Assembly: GCA_965226495.1 (NCBI GenBank)
Contig: OZ245365.1
Span: 1,312,001-1,376,000 of the forward strand
Direction of reading: 5' to 3'
DNA from: Candidatus Marinacidobacterales bacterium
GTDB taxonomy: Bacteria > Acidobacteriota > Vicinamibacteria > Marinacidobacterales > DATDRI01
DNA: 64,000 bases
Within the stretch, counting starts at the first letter, position 1. Each line of letters begins with the position of its first letter. Positions 1,887 through 54,358 of the stretch are shown here, in pieces. The notes beneath the pieces are model-generated. The model saw only the letters and a program-made list of their open reading frames with translations. It made no database searches and was not told the origin of the DNA. Position numbers and translations under genes: made by a program.

Positions 1887-1888
1887 CT

Positions 1889-5429: not shown

Positions 5430-5458
5430 AAAAGTCTGCCGGCAGAGGAAGGATGGCC

Positions 5459-33604: not shown

Positions 33605-34840
<1,236 letters not shown>

Positions 34841-34844
<4 letters not shown>

Positions 34845-35198: not shown

Positions 35199-36071
35199 TT
35201 ACTGAGTGGAAAGGAGCTTGGACTGCACGAACTGATAGCCGTCCTGCGGTCGAGCCATCGCGTCGTCCCACGGCTTCATGTGCTCGGCGACCTCTTCCTC
35301 GGAGTAGACGCGAGAGAGAATGGCGCTGATGTCGGTCTCGGTCCCCTCGAGCAGCGGATCGCCCATGAAGACGTAGGTGAGCGTGCCATCTTCGTCCGGG
35401 TCGGACGGATACAGAGCGCGGAACGAGCCCCCGCGAGCGAACTCCTCATCCTCAGCGCTGATTCTCGCGAGGGTGTCGATCAGGAAGTCCACGAACGTCT
35501 CGAACTCCTGCTGTTTGTCTGCCCGAACATACGTGAAGAACATGACCACCGTCTCACCCTCCACGGCCTTGCTGCCCGGACCCTGGTTCATGTTCTTGGC
35601 TTGCACGAAACCGTAGGAGTCCTGTGGCCGCGCCATCGCGTCGTCCCACGGCTTTCGAAGCTCGGGGATCTCATCCTCGGAATAGACTCGGGCGAGAATC
35701 GTACTGATACTGGTCTCGGCGCCCTCGCGAAGCGGATCGCCCATGAACACGTAGGTGAGTGTGCCGTCCTCGTTCGCTTCGCTCGGAAAGAGCGCTCGGA
35801 AGGCCGACTGGTTGTGCGCGAACTCGGCATCTTCGGCGACGATGGTGCGTAGCGTGTCGTCGAAGAAGCTCAGGAACCCTTCGAATTCCTGACGCTTCTC
35901 TCCCTGGACGTGAGTAAAGAACATCACCACCGTTTCGCCGTCCTGGGCCCGCATTGCGTCCGAGCTCGCCGCGGCGCTCGACTCCTCCGATGGCTCCACA
36001 CTCGTCGGTTCCTCGGCGGGCTGGCAGCTCGAGAGTATTGCGATGAGGAAAAGGAACGAGAATCGTCTCAT
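35199..36071 (-). CDS. Lipoprotein with two tandem ~120 aa repeats
   Basis: Lipobox LSSC; GETVVMFFT..DGTLTYVFMGDPL..KPWDDAMARPQD occurs twice. Confidence 0.8.
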   Translation of the reverse strand: MRRFSFLFLIAILSSCQPAEEPTSVEPSEESSAAASSDAMRAQDGETVVMFFTHVQGEKRQEFEGFLSFFDDTLRTIVAEDAEFAHNQSAFRALFPSEANEDGTLTYVFMGDPLREGAETSISTILARVYSEDEIPELRKPWDDAMARPQDSYGFVQAKNMNQGPGSKAVEGETVVMFFTYVRADKQQEFETFVDFLIDTLARISAEDEEFARGGSFRALYPSDPDEDGTLTYVFMGDPLLEGTETDISAILSRVYSEEEVAEHMKPWDDAMARPQDGYQFVQSKLLSTQ

Positions 36072-36294
36072 GGTATTCCCTCCGTGCGAAAACCCATTGG
36101 GTTTGAATCCGCAGCTCCCTCCGACCCAGGGGCTGTGACGGGCTGCTAACACGGTCGCCCAGGGTCGCATGGGGCGGTATTGACGCCTGTGGCAGATGCA
36201 GTGCCCGTTCGGGGCCGCATGGCAAACATACTACGCCGGGGCTCCGGCCAACGTCAAGCAGACAATCACTTGAAGACACAGCTAGCGTAGTGAG

Positions 36295-36432
36295 GAGTCC
36301 CCCCGGCTTTGCCGGGGAGGCACCCAGAGTTTGACATTTCCGGGAGTCGCCCAGAAGAACTCCCTTCCGTGAGCCGCCAAAGCATCACGAAAGGGAGTTC
36401 AAATGAGCGACTACCGGAGTCTAAGCCATGCT
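36295..36432 (+). mobile_element. IS200/IS605 left end with first ~10 codons of tnpA
   Basis: CCCCGGC ttt GCCGGGG hairpin, RBS-sequestering hairpin GAACTCCCTTCCGTGA/TCACGAAAGGGAGTTC, then MSDYRSLSHA. Confidence 0.7.
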
Positions 36433-36464
36433 TTGCAGGTATCTACTTCGCTGCCCGCTCAGAA

Positions 36465-37004
36465 GGATAGGAGAATTCATAACCTGACTGACTGCGCTCG
36501 GCTGCCATTTTCCCGTTTTGGTAGTGATGGTGGCACCTCATTGCGCGTTGGTGAAAGTAGCAGAAAGTGCACGGGGAAGGCAAAAGGAGTTTGGGCAGTT
36601 TTGGGCGGGGGAGTTTGGGCATAAAGCCACAGGTATGCCTTCCGGTGCCAGAGGGAGGGCACAGGGGAGGAGTCGCGGAGAAACCGAGGCTAATGCTGAG
36701 GAGGAGCGCGGGAGTCGGCCTTTCGCTTCTCCAAATGACCCAAGATTTTCCGAATCACCTTCTGCTTGGTGATGAAGGCGACGACGCGGTGGGTGTCCCC
36801 ACAGTCGCACTGGAGAGGATCGGTCTGATGAACGCGCTTGATGAGCTGGGCCCATCTTTTTCTGAGCGCGGCACGCTTTTTGGAGGACAGCTTCGGCTCA
36901 GAGTTGGCTTCAGGAAGGGAGAAACGCGATTTCTTGAAGGTTGCTGCTGGAGGCTGTTCGCTGGGGCTCCCTCGGTCCTCATCAGAGAGAATCGCGGCTT
37001 GCAC
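36465..37004 (-). pseudogene. 3' fragment of an IS91-like element
   Basis: RKRWAQLIKRVHQTDPLQC..FITKQKVIRKILGHL..RAPP is homologous to the C-terminus of 58080-59414; CCTATCC end at 36465 is a tentative oriIS. Confidence 0.75.
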
Positions 37005-37027
37005 CTACCCGGAAAAGTGACTTTTTG

Positions 37028-37222
37028 ACTGTCCCCGTACTGACCCCGAACTGGTGACACTCAGGGACAAAAACGGCACTTCCCTCTCGGGGCCGACCGT
37101 CCTAAGTACCTGATTTTACGCCATGTTTGATCAGGAGTGACATTATTAATAGGCGACGCGGGGGGACTTAAAATCCTCCGCGCTTCTTTTGGGCAAGTAT
37201 CTGATGAAGCCACTGTCCCCAG
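37028..37222 (+). other. Relic att site with a tRNA-Leu(TAA)-like anticodon-arm core
   Basis: GACGCG..GGGGA-CTTAAAA-TCCTC at 37155-37180; 11 bp-period ACTG(T/A)CCCCG repeats at 37028-37056 and ACTGTCCCC at 37212. Confidence 0.55.
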
Positions 37223-37250
37223 AAAATCCCTCGCGCCGACTCCGATGGGT

Positions 37251-37431
37251 TTGGTCACCAATTGGTCACCAACGTGGCTGAAGGTGCTGAACCGGGAAGA
37301 CATAAACACTACGCGTAGTCCTTGCTTTTTCTCCGTTTTTGGCGCTCTTGGTTCTGCTCGGTCTTCTCAGCTTTCCCCTGAGAGGATTCGTAATCAGCAG
37401 GTCGGAGGTTCAAGTCCTCTCGCCGGCTCCA
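37251..37431 (+). other. Relic attR with a tRNA-Thr(CGT) 3' half
   Basis: GATTCGTAATCAGCAGGTCGGAGGTTCAAGTCCTCTCGCCGGCTCCA at 37385-37431; TTGGTCACCAA x2 at 37251-37272. Confidence 0.8.
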
Positions 37432-37552
37432 TGTACATCCAACGACTGCTCGCACAAAAAATGCACGAGCCCCACTAATCTTCTGCCGCAAAACAAGTTA
37501 GCAATGTCGCTTTGGTGCGTTAGGCCGGTGGTCCGAGAGGCGGGTCCGTGCT

Positions 37553-40246
37553 CTAGTTCGTTGGCACGAGCCGCTTCAGCTCTTCGAACCAATTGAGGAC
37601 CACGTTGATTTGATTCCGCCCTTGTTGCTGCTCGACCTGAATCATCACGAATCGCTGACCGTCAGGGGTCACGCTGTAGTTCGCATCCCAGGGATTGGAA
37701 AGGTAAGTTCCCTCGAACAGTAGTAGAGGGCGGGACGGACTGAACGTGGGGTCCGCTTCGTAACCGACAGCCATCATTTTGTCTCCGTTCCGGTAGAAGA
37801 GCTCGTGCCCTTTGGGTGACCACACCGGCTCGGTACCCCCCTCCGTGGATAGTTGCCATTTGCCATCGAGGTCGGGAAACGGTTGCACGTACACCTCGAT
37901 CCGGCCAGATTCATCCGATGTATAGGCCAACCAACGGCCGTCGGGCGAGAGTGCCGGATGCCTTTCCTCGAAGGGCGTGTCAATGACAAACTCAGCCTGG
38001 CCTTCTCCCGTAAGCGGAAGCACCCCAATATCTCCGCCAGCGCTCGCGACTAGTCGGGCAAAGATTAAATATCGTCCATCAGGGGAGATACTTGAGGGCC
38101 ACACCGCGTTGTTGTCGCCCTTTGCCTTCAGGACCTCTATCTTTGTGCCGCTACCATCGGCAGCCTTTAGAAAGATGTCAGAAACCGAGACCTCCTTACC
38201 CCTACCCGATGCGAAGGCCACTTGGTCTCCGCCCGGCGTCCAGGCGGCATAAGCGCCGCGGTCGAACGTTAACCGTGTCATCGTGCCGCGTCGTATTTCG
38301 TAAACCCAAAGGTCTCTGAGACCTTGCTCGCCACGAACGCCGACGGCTAGACGTTCGCCGTCCGGTGAAAGGCGAGGATTCGAATAGGTCAGCAGGGTTT
38401 CGGTCAGCGGACTCGTCCCACCGTTCCGGTCGACCCAAACTAGCGATGCGTTGCCCGTCATGCCTACGCCGCCCGGTATGTATATGAGTGAACCTCTGGG
38501 GGTAATCGCGAAATTGGAAGCACCGCGGACTGGGACCCGCATTACGCCCTCGAGGATCGGAACCGGGCCACCGGACACCTGGAGCCGTGATTCATCGAAC
38601 GGCACTGCCAGGATGGTTGTCCCTCTTGCGTAGACAATATGTCCGGTGGACGAGTAGCGAGCATCCGTACCGCCCTCGATCAAGACGCGCCTCTCACCGC
38701 TTTCGAGGGATTGGACAACAATGCTGGAGTCATCCCACGAGGAGCCACCGGAGTTGAGTGTAAATAGCACGTGCTCGCCTCCGGGAAGCAACTCTGGCCG
38801 GTGGAACGCATCGGATTCTCCCACCGGCGCTACCAGTTGCTCCGGTGCGCCGCCGGAACCGGATACACTGTAAATGCCGCCGAACCCTGCGCCCAGGAGA
38901 ATACGATTGTCCGGTCCCCAAGTGGCGCCAAAGAAGAGTTGGGGGAAGTCGCAAAGGGTCACAGGCGCCCCGCCACTTACTGACACCTTCCTTAGTTTCC
39001 CGTCCGCCCAAAAGCCTAACCACTGTCCGTCCGGGGAGAAGAAAGGATTCCTTCCGGAGAGCAGTCCTACCCCTTCGGTGCCGGCGATCGGCGTCGTCCC
39101 GAGCCGGTCCAGCGCACGCAGGTGCAGTTGATTGTTGGCGACGTAGGCTACGTGCTTTCCATCCGGGGACGCAGCTACGAGGTGAGCTCCCATTGCGCCA
39201 CTCAGTACCTGGTCACGCAGCGGTATCTCGAATCGCATTAGGGATGGAGTTGGCACCGAGTTAGGATCCTTCATCACGAGCGCCGAGATCAGCGCGCCCG
39301 CCAACACGCCGACCGCCGTCAATAACAATGCCTTGCGCGGCGAGATCCCCGTGGCACGAGCACGATGCGGTGACTCGCTCGCCGGTGATGCGCCTTCGAC
39401 GATCCACTCCAACTCTCTGGTCACATCGCCCGCCGATTGCCAGCGGTCGTCAGGGTCTTTCGAAAGGCAGCGTTGGATCACGTGATCCAACGCCGGAGGT
39501 GTCGTCGTCTGAACAGTACTAATGGGCGGGGGCTCGTCCTTGAGAATTGCTCCAATAAGACTCGCCTGGCTTTTACCCTCGAATGCTCGGCGTCCCGTCA
39601 CCATCTCGTAGACCACGGCGCCAAAGGCGAAGATGTCGGTCCGCGTGTCGGCCTCTTTGCCTTCGAGCTGCTCGGGAGCCATGTACTGGAACGTTCCCAA
39701 AATGGCACCTGGTTGAGTTAGAGATTTTTGCTCGGTGGGTGCCGCCGATAGATCGGGTCCAGAACCGGCTACCGACATCTTGGCGAGGCCAAAATCCAGG
39801 AGCTTCGAACCGGACTTCGTCAACATAATGTTCCCGGGCTTTAGATCCCGGTGCACCACGCCTTGACGGTGGGCTTTGTTGAGGGCATCGGCGATCTCGA
39901 TCCCATGTTGGAGCGCGTCGTCGAAGGGGAGTGCTCCTTTCTTCAATCTGTCGGCGAGGGTTTGGCCTTGGATGTGCTCCATGACCATGAAGTCGATGCC
40001 GTTTTCGCTGCCAATATCGTAAAGCGTGCATATGTTCGGATGATTCAAACTGGAGACGGCACGGGCTTCGCGCTCGAATCTCTGCCGGACTTCGGGATGG
40101 CTGGCTACGTGAGCGGGAAGGACCTTGATGGCGACGGTGCGATCGAGGCGAGTGTCCTTGGCTTTGTAGACTTCACCCATTCCACCCGCGCCGATGGGCG
40201 CAACAATCTCGTATGGCCCAAGCTTGGTTCCAGGTTCTAAGGGCAT
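37553..40246 (-). CDS. Ser/Thr protein kinase with TM helix and PD40 repeats
   Basis: IGAGGMGEVY, HRDLKPGN, YMAPEQ, SPDG repeats and VVLNWFEELKRLVP tail. Confidence 0.95.
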   Translation of the reverse strand: MPLEPGTKLGPYEIVAPIGAGGMGEVYKAKDTRLDRTVAIKVLPAHVASHPEVRQRFEREARAVSSLNHPNICTLYDIGSENGIDFMVMEHIQGQTLADRLKKGALPFDDALQHGIEIADALNKAHRQGVVHRDLKPGNIMLTKSGSKLLDFGLAKMSVAGSGPDLSAAPTEQKSLTQPGAILGTFQYMAPEQLEGKEADTRTDIFAFGAVVYEMVTGRRAFEGKSQASLIGAILKDEPPPISTVQTTTPPALDHVIQRCLSKDPDDRWQSAGDVTRELEWIVEGASPASESPHRARATGISPRKALLLTAVGVLAGALISALVMKDPNSVPTPSLMRFEIPLRDQVLSGAMGAHLVAASPDGKHVAYVANNQLHLRALDRLGTTPIAGTEGVGLLSGRNPFFSPDGQWLGFWADGKLRKVSVSGGAPVTLCDFPQLFFGATWGPDNRILLGAGFGGIYSVSGSGGAPEQLVAPVGESDAFHRPELLPGGEHVLFTLNSGGSSWDDSSIVVQSLESGERRVLIEGGTDARYSSTGHIVYARGTTILAVPFDESRLQVSGGPVPILEGVMRVPVRGASNFAITPRGSLIYIPGGVGMTGNASLVWVDRNGGTSPLTETLLTYSNPRLSPDGERLAVGVRGEQGLRDLWVYEIRRGTMTRLTFDRGAYAAWTPGGDQVAFASGRGKEVSVSDIFLKAADGSGTKIEVLKAKGDNNAVWPSSISPDGRYLIFARLVASAGGDIGVLPLTGEGQAEFVIDTPFEERHPALSPDGRWLAYTSDESGRIEVYVQPFPDLDGKWQLSTEGGTEPVWSPKGHELFYRNGDKMMAVGYEADPTFSPSRPLLLFEGTYLSNPWDANYSVTPDGQRFVMIQVEQQQGRNQINVVLNWFEELKRLVPTN

Positions 40247-40511
40247 CGTTTGGCTTTCGGGAGTCAGCACATGCCGAGAAGTGAGATTCTAGTCCGGCAA
40301 AGACAAAGTGTCCAAGGGAAAAGCCTGGGGTCCTCGCCCTGTGCAGTAATTGTGCAGTGAAGCTGTCCGAACAGGTACCAAAGGAGCCTAAACCCGAGAG
40401 TCTAACTGGCTGATTTCTTGGGCTCCTTCTTCCTCCCTTTGTTCTGGTTGGACGCCTTCCCCGGCCTGTCACGCCGGAGGTCGCGAGTTCGAATCTCGTC
40501 GGCCCCGCCAC

Positions 40512-41830: not shown

Positions 41831-42166
41831 GGACCCAAGAAGTATAATGTGATGGCTTTGAAAATAGTACGTCAAGTGTGCGCGATGACATCCTTTATTG
41901 GGCGCGATGGGGTGCTTCCGCCATTAAGTGTTGGTGAGATGACGCTAAGACTTTACGGTGCATTAAGTTACAGCCAAAATAGCGCTCGTGACCTTCGCTG
42001 CGCGCTAAATAGAGCGTAAGCGACTCTTTTGCAACGGGATACGTACACATCACCAACAGCAAACAGCGCAAGCACCAATACCAGCACATCGCAGCGGAGA
42101 TCGAAGAGCGCATCGCTAACTGCCCGGCTTATCGCTGAACTCGGAATCCAATGCCGGTGTACGCCG

Positions 42167-43498
42167 TCAACGGATGAGGAGAACTTTCTCCTGAGGCGGG
42201 TACAACCATTCGATACCGCGCTCGGTGATGAGTGCGTTTTCCTCGACATTGACGCCTATCTTCGCTCCTCCCCATTCCTTGGCTGGCCGGAAGATCCGAT
42301 ATTCCAGCGAAATGATAGTGTTGGGGCGAACTTCGTATTTGGTCCGCTCCGGGAAAATCTCGAAGAGACCAGCCGACACATCATGGCCGATGTTGCCTGC
42401 GGCATGCATACCGACGTTGACCTCGATACCGGGCACGTCGCTGGGACGCTCCACCTCGGTGTAGACATAACCGGCGTCCCGAATGATTTGCTTGAGCTCG
42501 TCCAGCTGCTCTCTACCGGTGCGTCCCGACCGGACGTTCTTGCGAATGATCTCCGCCACCTTTCTTGCTTCTTCGAAGGCGACGACGACGTCGTGGGGCG
42601 CCTCGCTCTCCTCTTCTTTCAGGACGTAGGCAAAGCGCTTGATGTCAGTGCCGAAGTTATTGCGCACTCCTCCCCAATCGATCTGCACGATATCGCCTCG
42701 TCGAATAACCTCGTACACCGATCGCGCCCTCGAACCGCCCGGGCGGCTAAGCCAGACCGACGGATACCAAGCTCTTTGGAGCCCCCATTCCTCCCGCCGC
42801 TCCTCCAACCACAAGGAAACGTCCTGTAGAGTCGTCTGCCCCGGCGTGATCACTTCATTACTAAGCGCGCGCTCGATGCCCCTACGGGTGAGATCTCCAA
42901 TCTTGGAGATCTCACCCGCGACGCGCTCCCCGTGATAGTCCGCGATGAGATGCTGTGCCGAGGTGAAGCGGGAGGCGTACTTTTCGCCTAGCTCGTTCTC
43001 AAGGAACTGGTAGTCGGTGTGAGACAGTCCGTCGGCAACGTGAATACCCTCACGCGTATTGGGCACGGCGAGAAAGTTCAAAGCGATCGTTTTGGGATCG
43101 CGCTCTTCGACGATGGAGCGAAGCTCCGTACTTCTCCCGAACGAGTCGTACGCGCCACAGTCTTCCGCCATATCCGTCTCCGGTCCCAGCTGGATGCGCT
43201 CCACACGCCCTTCACCTGGGTCGAAGAAAATGTAGATCCCTTGGCCGTTGACGGTATCGATGCCGAAGTCACGCGCCATCGGCTCGGTGCCGCGACCACG
43301 ATCCAGCACGATCCACGTGTCGATGCGGTTGCGGCGCATGGCGGTGGGAAGCACGTAGTCGAATTTATCCTTGCGGATCATGCATGAGATCTCCCAAAGC
43401 GAGCGTGCATCGTCGATCGTCGATGCGCGGACCAGCAACGACAGGCTCGAGCTGGAGGCCACGAGGCACAGCAAGACAACGCATATGGATTTGTACAT
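42167..43498 (-). CDS. M24 family (Xaa-Pro) metallopeptidase, secreted
   Basis: GDIVQIDWG..GTDIKRFAY, HAAG, SLEY and VEEN; signal peptide. Confidence 0.85.
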   Translation of the reverse strand: MYKSICVVLLCLVASSSSLSLLVRASTIDDARSLWEISCMIRKDKFDYVLPTAMRRNRIDTWIVLDRGRGTEPMARDFGIDTVNGQGIYIFFDPGEGRVERIQLGPETDMAEDCGAYDSFGRSTELRSIVEERDPKTIALNFLAVPNTREGIHVADGLSHTDYQFLENELGEKYASRFTSAQHLIADYHGERVAGEISKIGDLTRRGIERALSNEVITPGQTTLQDVSLWLEERREEWGLQRAWYPSVWLSRPGGSRARSVYEVIRRGDIVQIDWGGVRNNFGTDIKRFAYVLKEEESEAPHDVVVAFEEARKVAEIIRKNVRSGRTGREQLDELKQIIRDAGYVYTEVERPSDVPGIEVNVGMHAAGNIGHDVSAGLFEIFPERTKYEVRPNTIISLEYRIFRPAKEWGGAKIGVNVEENALITERGIEWLYPPQEKVLLIR

Positions 43499-43512
43499 CT
43501 CGATTCCCCTAT

Positions 43513-44508
43513 CTATCGTTCGTCCACCGCGATGAGCGGGACGATTATAGTCGGCGTCGCGGACGGCGTGTAGCGCCCCTCGGGAGCCTTGGTCGCGATC
43601 ATGTACCTGGGATCGGTGAGCAATCCGTAGAGACATGGGTCCACCGTGCGCATCAACTCCGGCGTATAGGCCCCCCACTCTTGACTCGGGCCTTCACCGC
43701 TCTCGGGACGGTTGGCGAAGTTGAACTCCTGCGCTCCGAGGATGGACGTGGTGCCCCAATACATGTACTCGACCGCCATACAGCCGTAATCACAGGTCTC
43801 GTCGTCGTAGTGATACCAGGCCTCTTCGGGATATCCCGCCTTAGGTCCCCCGGTAGGTATTTCCATGAAGCGCCCTCCGCGCGCCTTGTCCATGCAGTTG
43901 GCGAGCGCGCTCCCAGGTTCCGGAGCAAAGGCTTCAGGGTAGGCCGGCGACCAACCGGCATCGCAAAGAAGGTGCCAGATTTCTTCGAGGGCTGCGTCCT
44001 GCTCGACCTCCCGATTGACCACGCCGTCGGTCATGAATCCGGGGTGCGTTTCTTCGTCCCAAAGCAACTGCCCGGCGTTGAATCCCGCGCTCCGCCAGGC
44101 ATCGTGATCCATGTTCTCCAGCTCTTCCGGCGTTTTCGGAAACACGATGAACGAGTTGCGGCTTACCAGATGGCTTAGCACCAGCATGTTTTCTGGCACA
44201 CCGTCGGAGTCGTTATCTAAGTACTCGGCCATGACCTTGGCCGCATGTAGCAACTTCTCGTCTCGTGCGTCGGGCGTGGCAAAGATGTGCACGCCGAACA
44301 CACTCACGTACTTGGAAAAACCACCCTCCTTGAACGGAGCGAGATCCTCGGGAATGTCGGTAATTCTGATCTCTGCGGTCACTTGCTTCTCACCGATGAT
44401 GGTTGCCCCCACGAAGGGGTCCGTCTCGTCCCCTTTGGATTGAGCTTGGGCAATCAACGCATCAGCAACGAGAAGAAACAACAGAGATACCGTCACAACC
44501 ATTTTCAT
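43513..44508 (-). CDS. Secreted hypothetical protein, possible zincin-like metallopeptidase
   Basis: Signal peptide; YLDNDSDG Ca-loop-like motif, LEEIWHL and EYMYW. Confidence 0.55.
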   Translation of the reverse strand: MKMVVTVSLLFLLVADALIAQAQSKGDETDPFVGATIIGEKQVTAEIRITDIPEDLAPFKEGGFSKYVSVFGVHIFATPDARDEKLLHAAKVMAEYLDNDSDGVPENMLVLSHLVSRNSFIVFPKTPEELENMDHDAWRSAGFNAGQLLWDEETHPGFMTDGVVNREVEQDAALEEIWHLLCDAGWSPAYPEAFAPEPGSALANCMDKARGGRFMEIPTGGPKAGYPEEAWYHYDDETCDYGCMAVEYMYWGTTSILGAQEFNFANRPESGEGPSQEWGAYTPELMRTVDPCLYGLLTDPRYMIATKAPEGRYTPSATPTIIVPLIAVDER

Positions 44509-44892
44509 GGCTAGCCTTCCTTGTCTCACCCCGTGAACTCAGCGGCCGAGGCGCCGCAGCCCGGGGTGATCGGAGACGATCCGGGTAGACCAAAACGCTG
44601 CCTAGTGCACCGTTGCCTCGAGGCCGATCCCTGGTGCACTCCATCACGATTACCGATGGTCCCTTCCATAAACTCGATCTGTATGAGATTGGCGAACTGC
44701 CTGCAACCAGGATGCTTTGGTCGTCTTCATGTAGGACGTTTTAAGAGCCGGCGTCGGCTCTACTCAGGGGTAGAGGTGTAAGCTGGTGCGGAGTCCCGCA
44801 GCCGTTCCGAGCGGATCAGACTCAAGCAGCGCGTCGAGTGTGATGATGATGGAGACCACCGACCTTTAGGAATATCGACCCGTGCCAGCAAG

Positions 44893-45301
44893 TCACTTGC
44901 GGATGGCGTAGGCGTAGAGCGTATCCTGGTCGCGCAGGTAGAGTGTGCCGTTTGCCACGACCGGATGTGCCCACGTGGGCTTGTTGGAGGTTCGGATCTC
45001 GAAGCGACCTTTCTCTCGGTACCCCACCGGCGTCGCCTCTACGAGCCCCACCACTCCGTTCTCGCTGAAGATGTACAAATGCCCGTCCGCAAAGACCAGA
45101 GAGCCCTTCCCGATGCTGCGGTCACGCCACACCAGCTCGCCCGTCCAGAAGTTCAGAGCGTGGAGACGGCTGCTCGAGAAACCATAGAGCGTATCGCCGA
45201 CCAGAACGGAGCTGCTGTGGTGGTTGCGCATGTCACGGGTGAAGTAGACCTCACGGGCTGTTATTTGCTCCGCGCCCCCGGAGATCTCGAGCAGGGCACA
45301 G
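44893..45301 (-). pseudogene. C-terminal fragment of a PQQ-like beta-propeller protein
   Basis: TGELVWRDR, ADGHLY and WAHPVVANGTLYLRDQD; cut at the 45302 repeat. Confidence 0.75.
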
Positions 45302-46699
45302 CCCGTCCTGTGCCAAAACTCAGCCCAGCCGGCATCGACGAAAGAACTGCGCCTCTCGAAATCAGGCTAAGACTCTAGCACGCGAACAGGTTACGCGGCG
45401 GCCGCCAACACTTGACTGCGGAAGCACCCATCGGTGCATCGGTTGCGTGTCCTTCATCATCATTGATTATCGGCACCCTGAGCATCAGCGGGGGAACCGT
45501 CCGGCGCAGCGGGCTTCTGGTCAGGCTCCATCGTTGTCCTCCGCCGTGATTCGGCCACGGGTGCTCCGCGATAGGCGGGGCGGACACGAACTCTATGCAG
45601 TCGGATGCGGATGCCCCGCCGCCAATAGCGCCTTCTGAACTCTCTGCAGAACATCGGGTGCTTTCAGCATTTCGCTACTAAAGTGAGGATCGGAGGGGAG
45701 CACCAAGTCACATACACGTCCATTTTTATCCAGTTTGTAGAATATGACAGTGGCTCGTCTATCGGGAGCCTTTCCTTCGTGAGCTGCTCCTTTTGCTTGT
45801 GGCCCCCACCTCTCGGGGAACCGCCGCGCGAGCAGCCACATCGAAGCCTCCGCCTTCGGCGGGCGAAACTTCGACACGATCTCGGCGGACTTGACCTTCC
45901 CGTCTTTCAACTGGCCGTTTAGGATTTCGCCGCCCTTGTATTTCACCGTCTGCCGGATAATCTTGCTCTCCCCAAGGGCGCTCCGCTCGATGTTATCGAG
46001 GTGAACCCATTCGAAGTGTGCCAGGGCCTTCTGGACGGACTCGTAAAATTCATGAAATAGACCGCCCTCTACCTTCCCACGTGCGAGCCACCTGCAAAGT
46101 GTCTCTGGGGTTATGCCAGCGGACTGCGCTGCATCCTTATAGCTCATCCCTGCTCGAACGCACCTGAGGACCTTCTCTTGGCGCTCGGGGGTGAGTTTAG
46201 TTTTCCGTCCAGCCATGTTTGGAGGAATCTTAAAATTCACGGAATTGTCCGCTCTTGGCCTCTTTCCTGGCAATTGCGCAGTCTTATTCTCCCCCATTCG
46301 GCGCATACGTCCATTATCCGGTATCAGGTAAATGAGGGTGGGTTGTCTATCGCGAGCCTCTCCTTCGTGAGCTTCTCCTCTTGCTCGTGGCCCCCACCTA
46401 TCGGGGAACCGCCGCGCGAGCAGCCACGCCGACCTCTTCCAGTTCCGCGGGCGAGACTCCGTCACGGTCGTAGCGTACTTGACCTTCCCGTCTTTCAACT
46501 GGCCGTTTAGGATTTCGCCGACCTCGTATCTTTCCGTCTGCCGGGTGATCTTGCTCTCCTTGAGGGCGCTCCGCTCGATGTTCTCGAGGTGAACCCATTC
46601 GAAGTGTGCCAGGGCCTCCTGGACGGACTCGTAAAATTCATGAAATAGGCCGCTCTCCGCCTTCTCCCCACGTGCGATCCACCTACAAAGCGTCTCTAG

Positions 46700-48200
46700 C
46701 AGCCCGTTGAAAAAGTCGTATTCGGCCGCGATATTTCTCTGAAGACTCATTCGATGACGATGTAAAATTGCATCGCATGTCGATGAAGAAGAAAAAGAAA
46801 AGTCGCCAAGAGACTTTATGGATTCCACACGATGCGGTTGCGTCGAGTCCTGGTCACCCTTTTTATGAGGAACTCGAGCGGGTACTTCGAGAGGAAGAGT
46901 TTGACTCGTTTGTGGAGTCGAAATGCTCGCCGTATTACGCGAAGAAGCAAGGTCGGCCGAGCATACCGCCGGGTGTGTATTTTCGAATGCTGTTGATCGG
47001 CTACTTTGAGCGCATCGATTCAGAGCGCGGGATCTGCTGGCGGTGTTCGGACTCACTGTCTTTGCGCCAGTTTCTTGGCCTTGGAATGGAAGAGCGAACG
47101 CCGGACCATTCGTCGCTGTCTCGGATACGGAATCGACTTCCGCTGGAAGTTCACGAATCTGTATTTGGATGGGTGCTAGAAATTCTAGCGTCGAGAGGGA
47201 TGATAGATGGCAAGACACTGGGTGTGGACGCGACGACGCTGGAAGCGAATGCGGCGCTTCGGTCAATCGTTCGTCGAGACACGGGGGAAAGCTACGAATC
47301 GTATTTGAAGGAGCTTGCGCGCAAGAGTGGTATCGAAGAGCCGAGCCGAGCGGACATTGCGAAGTTGGACAAGAAGCGGCCAAAGAAAGGGTCGAACAAG
47401 GAGTGGGTGAATCCGAACGAGCCGGATGCGGAGATCATGAAAATGAAGAGCGGGGGCACGGATATGGCGCACAAAGCCGAGCATGCTGTGGACATGAGCG
47501 GGGAAGGTGCGGTAATTGCCGTGACGCTTCACGGAGGCGCGAAGGGTGACACAAAGAGCCTACCGGATACGCTGGAAAAAGCGCAGTCAAATCTGCAAGA
47601 GCTCGCGAACAACGCGGAATATTGTGAACGAATACATGAAGACGCGGGTCGCGAAGTGGTCGGGGACAAGGGCTATCACGGCAACGACATCCTGGTTGAG
47701 CTGGTCGAACAAGAATACCGGAGCTACATTTCGGAGCCAGAGCGAGGTGGCCGCAAATGGAAGGACAAACAGGCCGAGCAAGCCGCCACCTACGCGAACC
47801 GACGTCGCATTCGCGGGACTCGAGGTAAGCGATTAATACGCCGTCGCGGCGAGTTACTCGAACGACCTTTCGCGCACTACCTCGAAGCGGGAGGCATGCG
47901 ACGAACGCATTTGCGAAGACACGAAAATATACTCAAGCGCCTCCTCACGCACGTGGCCGGATTCAATCTCGGGATTCTGATGCGCAATCTCATCGGCAAG
48001 GCCACGCCGAAGGAATACGCGGAGCTCAACGCCAGTCTGATCGCTGCTTTATTGCGCTTCGTCTCGACCATAGGCGCACGTTTTGCCCCGCTGCAATCCA
48101 TTGGGCGTCTCAACTTGGCCGTTCCGCCGAATCACATCTTCCTTGAACTTGCCCACCAAACTTTCTCCGTGAGCAGAATCGGGACTTTTTCACCGGGCTG
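46700..48200 (+). mobile_element. IS1182-like (DUF772/DDE) insertion sequence with CTAG TSD
   Basis: IRs CAGCCCGTTGAAAAAGTC and GACTTTTTCACCGGGCTG match 17/18; CTAG at 46696-46699 and 48201-48204. Confidence 0.92.
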
Positions 48201-48204
48201 CTAG
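46777..48204 (+). CDS. Transposase (DUF772 + DDE)
   Basis: GRPSIPP, TPDHSSLSR, VDATTLEANA and VGDKGY; stop TAG supplied by the TSD. Confidence 0.92.
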   Translation: MSMKKKKKSRQETLWIPHDAVASSPGHPFYEELERVLREEEFDSFVESKCSPYYAKKQGRPSIPPGVYFRMLLIGYFERIDSERGICWRCSDSLSLRQFLGLGMEERTPDHSSLSRIRNRLPLEVHESVFGWVLEILASRGMIDGKTLGVDATTLEANAALRSIVRRDTGESYESYLKELARKSGIEEPSRADIAKLDKKRPKKGSNKEWVNPNEPDAEIMKMKSGGTDMAHKAEHAVDMSGEGAVIAVTLHGGAKGDTKSLPDTLEKAQSNLQELANNAEYCERIHEDAGREVVGDKGYHGNDILVELVEQEYRSYISEPERGGRKWKDKQAEQAATYANRRRIRGTRGKRLIRRRGELLERPFAHYLEAGGMRRTHLRRHENILKRLLTHVAGFNLGILMRNLIGKATPKEYAELNASLIAALLRFVSTIGARFAPLQSIGRLNLAVPPNHIFLELAHQTFSVSRIGTFSPGC

Positions 48205-48725
48205 GGCTATGCCAGCGGGCTCCGCTGCCGCCTTATAGGTCATCCCTGCTCGAACGCACTTGAGGATCTTCTCTTGGCGCTCGGGGGTGAGTTTGGTTTT
48301 CCGCCCAGCCATTTGTCGGGGAATTTTACCATAGGTTTCGTTCTTGATAAAATTGACGATATATGCTGCTCTTGGCCTGCTCTCCACGCGCGAAACAGGC
48401 GTAGAACGTGGCCTTATTGACGCCTGCGACGTCTGCGACCTACCCCCGGCATCCTTAGCCAGAACGCACTCCCGGATGGTTTTTTTGCGTTCGGGGGTCA
48501 CTTTGTGTCCATTATTCTCTGTTAACTCCCTGTTTTTCAGGGTTGCCAGCCGAGACCGGATAGCTCCAAACTGCACCATCCGCCATTCAAATCAATAACT
48601 TGCGTGTGTTTCGGCGTGCCGGTTCGGCCAAATTGTCCGTGTTTTGCGAGAAAAGTGGACCACGGTCGGCTGTTCATCGATGTAGCTAGCCAAGGATTGG
48701 GTAGCGTTGGCGAGGTCTTCAGACC

Positions 48726-49196: not shown

Positions 49197-50834
49197 CTAT
49201 TGTTCAGCCTCATAGACAACTCGGCCTTCGAATACCGTTTCTAGAACTCGGGTGTTTGCTATTTCCGCCGAAGGTATTTCAAACAGGTTGCGATCGAGCA
49301 CAATCATATCGGCCATTTTCCCCATTTCAATGGAACCGTTGGTTTTCTGTTTACCCATAGAGATAGCACCATTCAACGTCATTGCCTTGATAGCTTCATG
49401 CAGGTCGATTGATTCGTCACCGTGATCGAGCAAACCAGAAAGTGCTGGAAAGAGATTTGGTTCGGGCAACACCACCCAGTCACTACCGATGGTCATCAGG
49501 GTATTGTGATCGAGCAAACTTCTGAACTGCCAGGCCCCTGCCAGATTGGCGGTGAGTGGACCTTTAATTTGCCAGATTGCCGGTGACATTTCCGTGACCG
49601 CATTAAGTTCACTTGGTCGGCCAAGATCCACCGATTCATATCGAAGACTATGGGCGATGTCGTGGTATATACCGGAGTCCCCATTTGCCTTGCGCGCCGT
49701 GGCGATGGCATTCAATGCCGTCCGCGTGGCACCGGTACCGACAGCGTGCATCTTTACCTTAAGCCCCATCTTGTCGAAATGCGTCACTAACTTGTTTAAT
49801 GTTTCCGGGCTGTCGTACAAACGTTCAACAGGAATATTTCCATCAGCATCCATATTCACGTCGGTAGCATGTGGCTGTAGTGGAGAGCCGTCCACATAGA
49901 TCTTAACGGCATCCGTATCCAGATGCGGTGATTTGTATCTTGCCCGGTCTCTAATTACGCGCTCCATATCGGCGGGGGACATGTTGCTGCTTCCCGGGTG
50001 GTTTACAACGAGATGAGTCGACAAGCGCAAAGGCCATTTCCCTTGCTCATCCAGTTTCTTGATTGCGATCAACATAGCTTCATTCGATGCAGCGTCCTGC
50101 GCTGAGGTAATACCAAATTGATTACAGAGTTTCGCCGTTCGCAACACCGCATCTCGAATCGTTTCGGAAGGTAAGGGTGGTATGTACTTCATCACCAGCC
50201 AAGTAGCTTTAGACAATAGTTCACCAGTAGGCTCACCCATCCCATCGTGCAATATTGTTCCTCTGTCGGGATCGGGCGTACTCCGATCGATTCCGGCGAT
50301 CTCAAGTGCCTTGCTATTGGCAAGTCCATGATGAAAGGACCATTCGCGAATATAGATCGGTGTATCAGGAAATGCCGCATCAATGCGACGCCGGTGCGCC
50401 TTGCCACCGGGAAACAAATCTCCGCGGTAGACAAAGGCCACAATCCATTCGCCCCGGGTAAACCCCTGCTCCTGGCAAAGTTTCAGGCCTTCAATAATCT
50501 GGTCTACATTACCGTTGGGTGGCAGCTTACAATCGATTTCACGCATCTGTGCCTTCAACAAATGCTGATGCGCATCGTGAAGACCGGGCATTGCCATTTT
50601 GCCTTTTAGATCGACGATACGCGTTTTTGGACCAACAAACGCACCGATATCTTCATCCTTGCCGACATACAGAAAGCGATCGCTCTTGATCGCAACGGAC
50701 TGTGCCCACGGAAGACTTGAATTTACGGTATAGATTTTGCCGTTCTTGTAAACGATGTCAGCATCTTGCTGTGCGAAAGCATTGTTCGCCACTGTGAGTA
50801 ACAAGAATCCAAGGATTATCAGATTGGTATTCAT
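49197..50834 (-). CDS. Secreted amidohydrolase_3 (YtcJ-like)
   Basis: PGLHDAHQH, KIYVDG, MHAVG, IGSDW and ADMIVLDRN. Confidence 0.9.
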   Translation of the reverse strand: MNTNLIILGFLLLTVANNAFAQQDADIVYKNGKIYTVNSSLPWAQSVAIKSDRFLYVGKDEDIGAFVGPKTRIVDLKGKMAMPGLHDAHQHLLKAQMREIDCKLPPNGNVDQIIEGLKLCQEQGFTRGEWIVAFVYRGDLFPGGKAHRRRIDAAFPDTPIYIREWSFHHGLANSKALEIAGIDRSTPDPDRGTILHDGMGEPTGELLSKATWLVMKYIPPLPSETIRDAVLRTAKLCNQFGITSAQDAASNEAMLIAIKKLDEQGKWPLRLSTHLVVNHPGSSNMSPADMERVIRDRARYKSPHLDTDAVKIYVDGSPLQPHATDVNMDADGNIPVERLYDSPETLNKLVTHFDKMGLKVKMHAVGTGATRTALNAIATARKANGDSGIYHDIAHSLRYESVDLGRPSELNAVTEMSPAIWQIKGPLTANLAGAWQFRSLLDHNTLMTIGSDWVVLPEPNLFPALSGLLDHGDESIDLHEAIKAMTLNGAISMGKQKTNGSIEMGKMADMIVLDRNLFEIPSAEIANTRVLETVFEGRVVYEAEQ

Positions 50835-50901
50835 TTTTTGGTCCTTCTCAGGGCCCGCGACTTTCAGGGCCTACGAGCGGAAGCAAGATATCCCGGCAGG
50901 C

Positions 50902-52575
50902 CTATTGTTCATATTGTTCAGCCTGATATACAACTTGGCCTTCGAATACGGTTTCCAGGACGAGGGTGTCTGCTATTTGCGCCGGTGGTATCTCGAACAG
51001 ATTACGATCGAGCACAATCATATCGGCAGATTTCCCCACTTCAATGGAACCATAGGTTTTCTGTTTACCCACAGCGATAGCACCATTCAACGTCATTGCC
51101 TTGATAGCTTCATGCAGGTTGATTGATTCGTCACCGTGATCGACTAGACCAGAAAGTGCTGGAAAGAGATTCGGTTCGGGCAATATCACCCAATCACTAC
51201 CGATAGTCATCAGGGTATTGTGATCGAGCACAGTCCTGAACTGGTAGGCCTTGGGCAGATTGGCTGTGAGCAGATTGGCCGTGAGCGGACCTCTAATTTG
51301 CCAGATTCCCGGTGACATTTCCGCAACGGCATTGAGCTTACTTAGTCGGGGAATATCCACCGCTTTATAGCGAATACTATGGGTGATCTCGTGGTATATA
51401 CCGGAGTCCCCATTTGCCTTGCGTGCCGCGGCGATGGCATTCACTGCCGTCCGGGTGGCGGCGGTACCGACGGCGTGCATCTTCACCTTAAACCCCATCC
51501 TGTCGAAATCCGTCACCAATCTGTTTAATGTCTCCGGGCTCTGGCGCAAACGTTCAACAGGGATATTTCCAGCAGCATCTATATCCACATCGGCGTTATG
51601 TGGCTGTAGTGGAGAGCCGTCCACAAAAATCTTTACGGCATCCGTATCTAAATGCGGTGATTTGTAACTTGCCGTGACACGCTCCACCTCAGCAAGGGGC
51701 ATATGACCCCCTCCCGACCGGTTTACGCGGAGATGGGTCATCACGCGCAAAGCCCACTGCCCCTGCTCATCCAGTTTCTTGATTTCGCTCAACAGAGCTT
51801 CAGTCGATGCAGCGTTCTGCGCTGAGGTAATACCAAATTGATGACAGAGTCTTGCCGTTCGCAGCACTGCATCGCGGAGCGCTTCAGAGGGTAAAGGTGG
51901 TATGTTTTTCCTTACCAGCGAGGCAGCTCCATGCACTAGTTCACCAGTAGGCTCACCTTTTTCATCGCGCACTATTTTTCCGCTGTCGGGATCGGGCGTA
52001 TTCCGATCGATTCCGGCGATCTCGAGTGCCCTGCTATTGGCAAGTCCGCCCTGGGCCCATGCGCTGATATAAACTGGTGTATCAGGAAATGCGGCATCGA
52101 TATAGCGCCGGTGCGCTTGGCCACCGGGAAACGAGCCTCCGCGGTAGACAGAGGCCACAATCCATTCGCCCCGGGTATGACCCTGCTCCTGGCAAAGTTT
52201 CAGGCCTTCAATAATCTTGTCTACAGTGCCAGCCGCAGGGTCAGCATAACTGGCGGGTCGCAGCCTACAATTGCCCCCAATTTCACGCATCGAAACCCCA
52301 AAATGCTGGTGTGCATCGTGAATACCAGGCATTGCCATCTTACCTTTTAGATCAACGACACGCGTTTTTGGACCAATAAATGATGCGACGTCTTTATCCG
52401 TGCCAACATACAGAAAGCGGTCACTCTTGATGGCAACGGACTGTGCCCAAGGAAGTCTATAGTTTACGGTATAGATTTGTCCGTTCTTGTAAACGATGTC
52501 AGCATCTTGCTGTGCGAAAGCATTGTTAGCCACTGTGAATAACAAAAATCCAGTGATTATCAGATTCGTAGTCAT
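50902..52575 (-). CDS. Secreted amidohydrolase_3 (YtcJ-like), tandem paralog
   Basis: Same motifs; highly similar to 49197-50834. Confidence 0.9.
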   Translation of the reverse strand: MTTNLIITGFLLFTVANNAFAQQDADIVYKNGQIYTVNYRLPWAQSVAIKSDRFLYVGTDKDVASFIGPKTRVVDLKGKMAMPGIHDAHQHFGVSMREIGGNCRLRPASYADPAAGTVDKIIEGLKLCQEQGHTRGEWIVASVYRGGSFPGGQAHRRYIDAAFPDTPVYISAWAQGGLANSRALEIAGIDRNTPDPDSGKIVRDEKGEPTGELVHGAASLVRKNIPPLPSEALRDAVLRTARLCHQFGITSAQNAASTEALLSEIKKLDEQGQWALRVMTHLRVNRSGGGHMPLAEVERVTASYKSPHLDTDAVKIFVDGSPLQPHNADVDIDAAGNIPVERLRQSPETLNRLVTDFDRMGFKVKMHAVGTAATRTAVNAIAAARKANGDSGIYHEITHSIRYKAVDIPRLSKLNAVAEMSPGIWQIRGPLTANLLTANLPKAYQFRTVLDHNTLMTIGSDWVILPEPNLFPALSGLVDHGDESINLHEAIKAMTLNGAIAVGKQKTYGSIEVGKSADMIVLDRNLFEIPPAQIADTLVLETVFEGQVVYQAEQYEQ

Positions 52576-52599
52576 TCGTACTCCTTGCTTAATATGGTT

Positions 52600-53931
52600 C
52601 TAGTCTCGCTCGTGCACGACCCGACCGTCCTGAATAACAACTTCAGGATGGACGAGTGCCCGGAGATTCTCCAAGGGATTGTCAGATACGATGATCAAGT
52701 CCGCTTTCTTTGCCGTTTCGATGCTGCCGATCTCATCGCCTCGCTGTAGCGCTTCGGCCGCGTGTTGCGTCGCCGCCTGCAGGATGCTCATCGGTGACAA
52801 ACCGCCACGGGCCAATCCTTCCAATTCCTGCGCATAGATATCGTCGATCTTCAGCATGTCCATCGGATTCGAATCGGTGCCCACGCCAAATTTCAAGCCA
52901 ACAGTCTGCATGGACTCGAACAGAGACATCGCGTTTTGGTGAGTATGACCCTGATTGATTTCCATCCAATTACCTTTGACGTGCGCGTTCCCGGCCAGCT
53001 CTCGCAGATGATAGCCTATCGTTGGGACGACGTAGATCCCCTGGCGGGCCATGTCCCTGAGTATGCTTTCCCTGTCCGGGCCGTAGGGGTACAGGTGTTG
53101 CACGCTATGGACCCCTGCGTCGGCGGCGACCCGCCCTGAAACCAGGTTCCGATCCGGTAAGCCGCCGATGTGGGCCGTAACGAAAATCTTCCAATCGTTG
53201 GCCTCTTCTACGACGGCTTTGAGCTCTTCCACCGTGTAGGGCGGCGTCACCTTAATGAAATCAGCGCCGTACATAACCGCTTCGCGTACACGCTCGCGAA
53301 ATTCCCATGGCCCCGTCGCTACCGCTGCGTAGACGGGTTTTTCGTATGGAATAAATTCTGTCGCGTGGCCAGCGGGCGTCGTGATTACTGGTCCTGAGAC
53401 GTACAGCCTCGAGCCGCCGATCAATCCCATCCTCTGAGCGCGCTTGAGCGAATAACCGACGTTGAAACGGGAACCAACGTCAGCAACCGTCGTGACACCG
53501 ATTTCCTGATACTTCTCCAGAAATCGTTCTGCCCGGACTGCGTTCATGACGTCGTCTTCGACATTCCAGCCCGTCGGCACGAAATAAGTTATGTGAGCAT
53601 GCAGGTCGATAAGACCCGGAGTGACCCACTTGCCGTCCGCACTGATGCGAATGGCATTCTCCGGAATTTCGGAAGCGCCAAGTTCGGCGAATCTACCGTT
53701 CTGGATAAAGATTCCAGGATTCGCCGCTGCTCCTCTGCCGGTGCCGTCGATTAGTGTGCCACCCTCGACGAAAATCGGTACGTCCGGCCCGGCATCCTCG
53801 ACAAAGTCGTGCAAATCACCGGTATACAGGAACGTAATGTCCGGATCTTCGAACTCCTTCTGCGCAGCGTTAACGTCGAAGGCGACGAACAAGGCGAAAT
53901 AGACGGGTAGCAAGCGAGTCGCAATTTTCAT
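52600..53931 (-). CDS. Secreted amidohydrolase_1 (prolidase-like)
   Basis: PGLIDLHAH, GADFIK, VGTDS and KADLII. Confidence 0.88.
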   Translation of the reverse strand: MKIATRLLPVYFALFVAFDVNAAQKEFEDPDITFLYTGDLHDFVEDAGPDVPIFVEGGTLIDGTGRGAAANPGIFIQNGRFAELGASEIPENAIRISADGKWVTPGLIDLHAHITYFVPTGWNVEDDVMNAVRAERFLEKYQEIGVTTVADVGSRFNVGYSLKRAQRMGLIGGSRLYVSGPVITTPAGHATEFIPYEKPVYAAVATGPWEFRERVREAVMYGADFIKVTPPYTVEELKAVVEEANDWKIFVTAHIGGLPDRNLVSGRVAADAGVHSVQHLYPYGPDRESILRDMARQGIYVVPTIGYHLRELAGNAHVKGNWMEINQGHTHQNAMSLFESMQTVGLKFGVGTDSNPMDMLKIDDIYAQELEGLARGGLSPMSILQAATQHAAEALQRGDEIGSIETAKKADLIIVSDNPLENLRALVHPEVVIQDGRVVHERD

Positions 53932-53950
53932 TTTGGTCCTCCCCAACAGG

Positions 53951-54358
53951 CTACCGAAACGCATTAGCGACTTCGGCGGAGTTTATATACTCTTCGTAAC
54001 TCACGATTTTTCCTTCAACTATTTTGAGGACATGCACAAAGGGAGCGGTGTATGTCTTGCCCGTCGATTTGACCTTGCTTTTTTCACTGCCGGTGACGAG
54101 AACCGTGTCACCCGATGGGTAGAAGTGGTCGAGGTCCATACCAAGAGGTTCGGCGACTTCGCCGTAATCCGCAAAAAATTGAATGACGCCGTCGTGCCCG
54201 GTGTACACGCCTGAAAACGGAATCGTCGTGGCATCGCCGTAATAGATCCATTGAATGTCGTCCGACATGAGGGTCAGCGCCCCGTCCATATCGCCGCCGA
54301 CAAGTGTCTCGTACATTCTCTTGGCGATTTCTATATTCTTCTGGTCAGTATCCACCAT
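53951..54358 (-). CDS. SnoaL/NTF2-like protein
   Basis: PFSGVYTGHDGV..FF, TGKTY..FVHV and EEYINS. Confidence 0.85.
   Translation of the reverse strand: MVDTDQKNIEIAKRMYETLVGGDMDGALTLMSDDIQWIYYGDATTIPFSGVYTGHDGVIQFFADYGEVAEPLGMDLDHFYPSGDTVLVTGSEKSKVKSTGKTYTAPFVHVLKIVEGKIVSYEEYINSAEVANAFR

Follow-up and report, generated by a model that had tools for sequence, protein, structure and literature searches.

The window analysed here is a stretch of 64,000 nucleotides from the genome of a Candidatus Marinacidobacterales bacterium (assembly GCA_965226495.1, contig OZ245365.1, positions 1,312,001 to 1,376,000 of the forward strand), and the subject of this report is a minus-strand gene that encodes two fused units resembling the small subunit of phage terminase (TerS). 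The gene is the sole open reading frame (ORF) of a repeated element of about 1.78 kb and, judged by the ends of its copies, is the cargo of a small, mobile-looking element. Our best explanation, which we hold with about even confidence, is that the element is non-autonomous and that its cargo encodes an oligomeric DNA-binding accessory protein. Positions below are those of the window; G000 denotes the genome of the window, G001, G002 and so on denote related genomes, and the prefixes L and P denote loci and proteins. The whole repeated element lies at 45302..48585 on the minus strand and measures 3,284 bp, or 1,779 bp without an interrupting insertion sequence (IS) and one CTAG, its limits being those of homology with G001, G002 and G003. 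Read in the direction of the gene, and all on the minus strand, it consists of a 5′ terminal module (48552..48585; TGGC and a hairpin, GGAT(G/A)G-12 nt-C(T/C)ATCC) that is near-identical at all copy starts, a leader of 89 codons containing the stub of a third unit (48313..48579, an open frame from the ATG at 48579), the first 36 codons of unit 1 upstream of the IS (48205..48312; MAGRKTKL...AGIA), the remaining 161 codons of unit 1 including a linker (46217..46699; ...IYLIPDNGRMRRMGENKTAQLPGKRPRADNSVNFKIPPN), the 207 codons of unit 2 (45596..46216, stop codon at 45593-45595), and a non-coding 3′ module (45302..45592) whose last 25 nt or so (GGGCTGAGTTTTGGCACAGGACGGG) are the outer end of local IS481-like terminal repeats.

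The 493-codon frame is split by a 1,501-bp IS on the plus strand at 46700..48200, which is bounded by terminal inverted repeats (TIRs) CAGCCCG(T/G)TGAAAAAGTC, alike at 17 of 18 positions, and flanked by a CTAG target duplication (46696-46699 and 48201-48204). Its transposase ORF (46768..48204, plus strand, 478 aa) carries the Pfam domains DUF772 (E 1e-20) and DDE_Tnp_1. A DDE transposase with a DUF772 N-terminus, short TIRs and a 4-bp CTAG duplication are the marks of the IS5/IS1182 type; IS1182 as a family name is approximate, since the match to the NCBIfam IS1182 model (E 1.6e-48, 165.9 bits) does not reach the curated cut-off of 270. Two further full copies, 100% and 99.6% identical, are present in G000, and the IS has therefore been active recently. 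With the IS and one CTAG removed, the pieces 48579->48205 (125 codons) and 46699->45596 (368 codons) form one frame with the joint ...AGIA|LETLCRW, and intact natural homologues (P0051-P0053 and the G001 locus L029) read ...AGIALETLCRW... at the same place. This bears out the sequence-only reading of the window, made before any database search, which had proposed that such a removal restores GIA-LETLCRW and an ORF of about 493 aa. The window copy of the gene is dead; for whole-protein analyses natural intact copies were used, and the two pieces of the window gene were taken separately.

Unit 1 starts with MAGRKTKL at 48312 and unit 2 with the same residues at 46216, a period of 197 aa. The unit-1 pieces of the window are 71-78% identical to unit 2, and in the intact G001 copy the two units share 75% of amino acids and 86% of nucleotides over 167 codons. 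The stub (KVTPERKKTIRECV..., then ...VNFIKNETYGKIPRQ before MAGRKTKL) repeats the unit start and the inter-unit joint within codons 1-89, and two indels of 3 nt each are found within the units. The sequence-only reading had described a degenerate partial unit ahead of two units fused in frame, with unit 1 reading IYLIPDNGR and then continuing through an open linker in place of a stop; both features are present, the units measuring about 197 aa each. The layout of a unit is a helix-turn-helix (HTH), a long helix, a beta-hairpin insert and a WLLARRFPERWG helix; each unit contains a helix of the form W-L-x-R-R-x-P-x-x-W-G, and the tail of unit 2 runs into the 3′ module. A structure model of the natural two-unit copy of G001 has a pLDDT of 69 and a pTM of 0.60. 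In the leader, the ratio of nonsynonymous to synonymous substitution (dN/dS; Nei-Gojobori, about 12 full copies and small counts, here and below) is 1.3-2.4 between copies. Single-unit relatives begin at MAGRKTKL and are preceded by about 370 nt of non-coding DNA, and because the single-unit paralogue starts there, the leader of the two-unit form may be untranslated.

That each unit is a relative of TerS, as the sequence-only reading had supposed, is confirmed by profile and structure comparison, and the type is that of Sf6 gp1. Unit 2 matches phrog_4102, "terminase small subunit", at E 4e-18, the C-terminal piece of the split gene does so at E 1.2e-27 and the piece of unit 1 upstream of the IS at E 5.2e-5, and the remainder of unit 1 is placed by its similarity to unit 2. 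A full scan of 1.84 billion representatives gave 3,734 relatives at E<=1e-3, and most of the 150 relatives listed are single-unit proteins of 130-200 aa; phrog_4102 is matched by 88/88 aligned relatives (alignment A1). The Pfam family PF20901, Sf6_terminase, is matched by 27/88 of them and not by the window unit itself, for which Pfam gives HTH matches only, all below threshold (HTH_Tnp_1, HTH_23 and HTH_7); HTH_Tnp_1 is matched by 44/88 relatives. Searched against the PDB, the A1 family profile finds Sf6 gp1 (4dyc and 3hef) at E ~9e-8 (4dyc at 8.6e-8), and the match covers the HTH and, less strongly, a second stretch holding the helix W-x-L-x-R-x-x-P-x-x-(W/Y)-G. In the AlphaFold2 model of unit 2 (pLDDT 81), an HTH of three helices is accompanied by a long helix, an inserted beta-hairpin and one more helix, and among 48,161 PDB chains the best fold match of the model is Sf6 gp1 (3hef_A, Z 8.4, 115/123 residues, rmsd 8.5), with the next row at Z 5.8. 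Foldseek also places Sf6 gp1 on top of its PDB matches, weakly (E 0.04-0.06). In BFVD, 26 viral models match at E<=1e-3, many of the named ones being called terminase small subunit, and phage records yielded five weak matches, from archaeal viruses, at 26-37% identity over no more than 67% of the unit. Pfam, NCBIfam and PHROGs revealed no catalytic domain in the TerS-like ORF. The units thus share with Sf6 gp1 (PDB 3hef and 4dyc, PF20901, phrog_4102) the domain order and fold, with an N-terminal HTH and long helices, as well as the conserved tryptophan- and proline-bearing helix. They differ from it in that the window gene has two units per chain and the stub of a third, in a beta-hairpin of about 30 residues inserted between the helices, in their location on a short repeated element and not at the end of a phage genome, and in belonging to a genome that has no match to three families of the large subunit (TerL). 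Apart from the two-unit genes, five long proteins (P0068, P0079, P0100, P0102 and P0162; 465-1,954 aa) each give six to nine separate matches to the HTH region of the unit and are single-chain arrays of that HTH.

Homology between copies of the element starts at TGGCGGAT(G/A)GTGCAGTTTGGAGCTATCC..., 6 nt upstream of the first ATG or GTG, and stops at ...GGGC(T/C)GAGTTTTGGCACAGGACGGG, about 290 nt past the stop codon; beyond these limits the flanks differ. Several copies with these identical sharp ends, 93-97% identical in nucleotides, are spread over four genomes from two genera, at sites unrelated to one another. With the 1,784-bp G001 copy as query, places covering at least 80% of it number one in G001, two in G003 and four in G002, many 5′-truncated remnants keep the 3′ end, and solo copies of the last 130-400 nt of the 3′ module are abundant in G001-G003. 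The window copy is 96-97% identical to the G003 copies, though G000 and G003 belong to different genera; the DNA around it is 84-92% identical within the genus and finds no match in G003. A single-unit paralogue in G001 and G002, whose protein is only 51% identical, carries both end modules as well, the 3′ one with 87% of nucleotides identical. The claim that the gene is solitary holds for G000, where it is single-copy, and fails for the relatives, where it is multi-copy on an element of 1.4-1.8 kb; nor is it borne out that the gene is domesticated, for it sits on a multi-copy, sharp-ended element that shares its end modules with a serine-recombinase element described below. In the 5′ module, which occurs four times in G000, the stem variants GGATGG/CCATCC, GGATAG/CTATCC and GGATGG/CTATCC keep the pairing, a second small hairpin (CCCTG-AAAAA-CAGGG) follows directly, and the DNA fold has a z of -2.4; the 3′ module shows no fold beyond that of shuffles (z -0.02 and -0.46). 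The gathering scores of Rfam were reached by a single tRNA in the window; between 40000 and 49000, at E<=1, there was no more than a weak tRNA fragment.

The last 20-25 nt of the element are the outer end of the TIRs, about 80-100 nt long, of 1.43-kb ISs with an rve-type DDE transposase, of which G000 20603..22041 and 6272041..6273471 are examples. This homology, together with the weak HTH_Tnp_1, HTH_23 and HTH_7 matches of the window unit and the HTH_Tnp_1 matches of half of its aligned relatives, speaks for a regulator comparable to OrfA of IS3, that is, a protein with an HTH and a long helix that binds the IS481-like terminal repeats and tunes their transposition; we consider this distinctly unlikely, since the best whole-unit matches are to TerS and not to the N-termini of transposases, and it overlaps with our best explanation to the point that the partner enzyme is the sole difference. 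Two other origins of the 3′ end were considered and rejected: the GGCACAGGACGGG motif is not an end of the IS200/IS605 or IS110 type, being the outer TIR end of the 1.43-kb ISs, and a 1.29-kb IS481-like IS in L022 merely adjoins one copy and has its own ends (TGT(C/G)CATC...). The two-unit copies of family f2 in L033 (8425..8740, G026) and L034 have the gene placed after a left IS481-like terminal repeat and a remnant of about 25 aa from the C-terminus of an rve transposase, and in G034 and G014 a different TIR-type element abuts 58 nt past the stop.

The same two kinds of end bound a second element. At G000 6294184..6297313 (L054), an element of about 3.1 kb, running from 6297313 down to 6294184, has the hairpin end and the TIR-like end and encodes a DUF2924 protein (182 aa) and a 553-aa protein with Resolvase and Recombinase domains. 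The end modules stand in the same relative arrangement in both elements, the hairpin module being 97-100% identical over 34-37 nt, and both elements end in GAGTTTTGGCACAGGACGGG and have the 3′ core ...GGCACAGGACGGG in common. Among 14 further copies of the recombinase from seven genomes (L055-L068), the TIR-like end stands before DUF2924 in 12 and the hairpin is present in 11; the ends are 3.1-3.2 kb apart, and outside the TIR-like end the adjoining sequence varies from copy to copy. The element is very abundant in exactly those genomes in which TerS-like genes are present: G002, G003, G018, G026 and G034 each have 22 or more matches to the recombinase (94-99% aa identity, two families), whose 90% protein cluster contains 1,926 sequences. 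Across 61 related genomes, 10 carry both the TerS-like protein and the recombinase and 47 carry neither, while the TerS-like protein is found alone in one (G060; E 3.4e-5, HTH only) and the recombinase alone in three (G007, unpublished, at 40% identity; G008; G010).

The sequence before the hairpin end hints at the target. The hairpin end directly follows the end of a repeat of about 350 bp (...TTGGCCAGACTGGG) in 12/18 of the TerS-centred loci (L022-L053), follows a ...TTGGCACAGGACGGG end and one base in 4/18, and has other sequence before it in 2/18, both orthologous sites; at the recombinase loci those two end kinds precede it in 9/11 and 2/11. The hairpin end therefore abuts the ...GGACGGG or ...GACTGGG end of another element in 16/18 TerS loci and 11/11 recombinase loci, and the two kinds of abutting end resemble each other. 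Joined-end sequences (TIR core, one nucleotide, hairpin) also occur in the chromosomes, where they may be targets or tandem insertions. The DUF2924 and recombinase element has the look of an IS-sized transposon of the serine-recombinase kind that belongs to no recognised class. Tn4451 and Tn5397, which are moved by the large serine recombinases TnpX and TndX, are comparable in that the sibling element encodes a 553-aa Resolvase and Recombinase protein, lacks classic inverted repeats and adjoins sequences like its own end; it differs from them in being IS-sized (about 3.1 kb), extremely abundant and paired with DUF2924, and in that its apparent targets are the ends of other mobile elements. The TIR motif has 30 occurrences in G000, 27 of them in one region of about 145 kb that spans the contig ends (6.218-6.337 Mb and 1-24 kb). 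It is crowded with ISs, with repeats like miniature inverted-repeat transposable elements (MITEs) and with serine-recombinase elements.

The surroundings of the gene are not those of a phage. Among 42 ORFs of the window that were scanned, no Pfam family of TerL, portal or capsid was matched at E<=1e-5, in agreement with what had been read from the window alone; PF03237, PF03354 and PF04466 have no match in G000, and PF03237 and PF03354 none in G001, G002, G003 and G034. G026 has one marginal PF03237 match, about 2.5 Mb from its two-unit locus. Distant copies are surrounded by genes for transposases, serine recombinases and unrelated proteins, and neither TerL nor defence genes were found beside the copies in 15 loci, part of whose ORFs were scanned; the gene does not lie beside a large terminase with which it would work in packaging. 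It is highly improbable that the locus is the remnant of a prophage with a duplicated TerS gene and the rest lost. The TerS homology would suit such a remnant, as would an island that is integrated at a tRNA gene, carries a tyrosine integrase and lies 5 kb away (33.6-40.5 kb), but the same 1.78-kb unit with the same ends is found at unrelated sites in four genomes, the window has no phage structural or TerL gene and the genome no TerL of the three families, and the island ends at 40510, before the element. Phage satellites such as the Staphylococcus aureus pathogenicity islands (SaPIs) and the phage-inducible chromosomal islands (PICIs) use TerS variants, and with SaPI TerS and PICI Rpp the present gene shares that a TerS-type protein is encoded outside a phage by a mobile element. 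Satellites measure several kb to about 15 kb and have genes for integrase, replication and regulation; the element differs in that it is only 1.4-1.8 kb long, has one ORF and no integrase, replication module or helper-responsive regulator, and exists in many, often truncated, copies. A literature search, judged by titles and the openings of abstracts, turned up no work on TerS units joined in one chain or on IS-like elements that carry TerS genes and, for DUF2924, only papers on Wolbachia.

TerS-like matches were found in 11/61 related genomes (G000 excluded), including three of seven in family f1, six of 19 in f2 and none of 28 in f3, and G002 alone has 24. Intact multi-unit homologues, which the sequence-only reading had proposed to look for, exist as two-unit open frames in G001 (502 aa), at four loci of G002 (424-598 aa), in G026 (567 aa) and in G034 (559 aa), and as the proteins P0051 (492 aa, metagenome, 81 member sequences), P0052 (497 aa, 39 member sequences), P0053 (487 aa, three member sequences), P0002 (347 aa) and P0007 (354 aa); single-unit forms of 190-200 aa are represented by P0024, P0027, P0028 and the loci L036 and L049. 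None of the multi-unit homologues adjoins TerL. The units thus match TerS, and the homologues are not uniformly single-unit genes beside TerL, the pattern that the sequence-only reading had associated with a decayed prophage duplication. A maximum-likelihood tree of 37 units joins unit 1 and unit 2 as sisters in the f1 lineage (support 96/96), in the G026/G034 lineage (99/98, with the single-unit metagenomic rows P0057 and P0061 nested among the unit-1 rows), in P0007 (91/81) and in P0002/L032 (83/65, with the long-branched single-unit P0065 beside unit 2). The joints between units are unlike in the f1 type, P0007 and G026/G034. Because the units are sisters within each lineage and the joints differ, in-frame doubling would have taken place at least three times, or the units would have been homogenised within each lineage.

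The second unit of G026 and G034 has no start codon of its own and can therefore be made only as part of the fusion. Between lineages at about 50% identity dN/dS is 0.16-0.36, which in sequence comparison amounts to purifying selection between distant lineages. In a simulation, the chance that 404 codons remain free of stops after 7% random change was about 0.04, so that the two-unit frame has probably been kept open by selection; the evidence for this is modest.

We propose that the TerS-like element is a non-autonomous sibling of the DUF2924 and recombinase element and would be moved in trans by that recombinase; an IS481-like DDE transposase with a common terminal repeat is a less likely mover. 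The element would insert beside the ...GGAC(G/T)GGG-type ends of other elements, and its own 3′ core may be the shared crossover sequence. The protein would be an accessory factor that forms oligomers, binds specific DNA sequences and acts on the DNA of mobile elements, at the ends or at the joint, and not in capsid packaging. The window copy would first have become part of a rearrangement in which a beta-propeller gene was severed, and a still-active IS would then have split it. Like MITEs and cargo-carrying IS derivatives, the element is short and multi-copy, has its ends in common with an autonomous element and encodes no transposase or recombinase of its own, the TerS-like protein being its only ORF. 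It differs from them in carrying a protein gene of about 1.5 kb, in that its two ends are unlike (a hairpin module and a TIR-like core) and no target duplication is seen, and in its likely driver, a large serine recombinase with DUF2924 and not a DDE enzyme. A more specific proposal, which we regard as rather unlikely, is that TerS-like proteins were recruited as accessory DNA-binding factors, for instance in end synapsis or directionality, for undescribed, IS-sized DUF2924 and large-serine-recombinase elements that insert at IS ends, in-frame doubling giving a covalent dimer suited to two unlike ends. When the 553-aa recombinase was modelled in complex with a single TerS-like unit, the outcome (score 0.00, mark 0.32) spoke neither for nor against binding.

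Several observations weigh against this explanation. The genomes are static, and no movement, excision or circle was seen in them. Both the mobilisation in trans and the DNA-binding accessory role are inferred. TIR-like sequence is present at the 3′ end only, the 5′ end being the hairpin module, and for the element as a whole neither a target duplication nor an empty site came to light; the two flanks of the window copy are contiguous in no relative, so that no clean insertion site was obtained. The kin genomes in which both elements co-occur are not independent, and both elements may merely track IS-rich genomes; moreover, the repeats are so dense, several per 18 kb, that some adjacency to TIR ends and to recombinase copies is expected by chance. 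With regard to the gene itself, dN/dS is 0.82-1.53 between unit 1 and unit 2 and 0.5-1.2 within units between recent copies, and about half of the two-unit loci are broken. Among the ten f1 loci with parts of both units, five are open (L029 and L022-L025) and five are broken, namely the window (IS), L026 and L032 (truncation), L030 (frameshift) and L031 (TAA). Because dN/dS is about 1 between units and recent copies and half of the loci are broken, the two-unit genes may be decaying.

These last values, with the leader at 1.3-2.4, are what would be expected of a decaying passenger, that is, a TerS gene that a mobile element acquired on one occasion, that was doubled through slippage or unequal exchange and multiplied in a burst, and that is now drifting. 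We think this rather improbable, in view of in-frame duplications that are found in three or more lineages and differ in their joints (f1 type, P0007 and G026/G034), the within-unit indels that are all multiples of three, the purifying selection between lineages, and the second unit of G026/G034 that is makeable only as a fusion. A dN/dS near 1 between units whose frame of about 400 codons has nevertheless stayed open, against a chance of about 0.04, would also fit an arms race, and hence the proposal that the tandem TerS-like protein is a packaging decoy or hijacker, which binds the large terminase or the DNA of an infecting phage and either blocks packaging, as a defence, or redirects it to host or element DNA. 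True TerS homology runs over the whole unit, and in a genome without a resident TerL any partner would have to come from an incoming phage. Nevertheless, the element is only 1.4-1.8 kb and has no integrase, replication or regulatory gene, most carrier genomes lack TerL, the copies behave like ISs or MITEs, with many truncated ones in repeat-rich regions, about half of the two-unit loci are broken, and no defence genes adjoin the gene in the scanned part of the ORFs of 15 loci. A decoy or hijacker is unlikely on this evidence, and less likely than the cargo of a mobile element.

Small terminases are seen as proteins devoted to phage packaging, and outside phages they are known chiefly from satellites. 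In the present case, a protein of the TerS type multiplies on its own: it is the one gene of a very small repeated element, its genomes lack a large terminase, and its in-frame doubling has happened several times. Should the protein prove to work with a serine recombinase or a transposase, that would be a novel role for the TerS fold; an abundant group of unclassified serine-recombinase elements, seemingly aimed at the ends of other ISs, would also come to light, and insertion at IS ends would make them mobile elements that parasitise mobile elements. At the level of annotation, a call of "terminase small subunit" in such genomes is no marker of a prophage.

The element's 3′ end cuts a beta-propeller gene, of which a C-terminal remnant is left at 44893..45231 on the minus strand. 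The gene is intact at two places in G002 (L037 and L040), where it is uninterrupted and 99% identical to window 42077..45306. As the gene is cut at the 3′ flank, its remainder was not found in G000 and the 5′ flank of the element maps elsewhere in G002, the window copy lies at a rearrangement joint. The 3.2-kb segment 42077..45306 comprises an M24 peptidase gene, an ORF of 338 aa and the beta-propeller remnant, and its 99% identity to the two G002 places, compared with 84-92% for nearby DNA, suggests a recent transfer or a repeated segment. Two MITE-like repeats lie close by, one of about 215 bp (44659..44873) with dozens of copies at 87-96% identity in G001-G003 and one of about 166 bp (41905..42076) that recurs in many loci.

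The tRNA-integrated island covers about 6.8 kb (33605..40510). It begins with the tRNA gene (33605-33678) and a tyrosine integrase ORF (33624..34844, minus strand), includes a Ser/Thr kinase-PD40 gene (37553..40270), and is delimited by a perfect 50-nt repeat of the 3′ part of the tRNA (33632-33681 and 40461-40510). An IS481-like terminal repeat (40512..~40600) begins one base past the CCA of this repeat. Further transposase genes of the window lie at 13626..15182, 58080..59414 and 59566..60282, and their types are a second DUF772/DDE_Tnp_1_6, an IS91-type (Y2_Tnp) and an IS6/IS240-type. Finally, the regions 135..9825 and 49197..53964 hold two hydantoinase A/B gene pairs and three tandem amidohydrolase paralogues.

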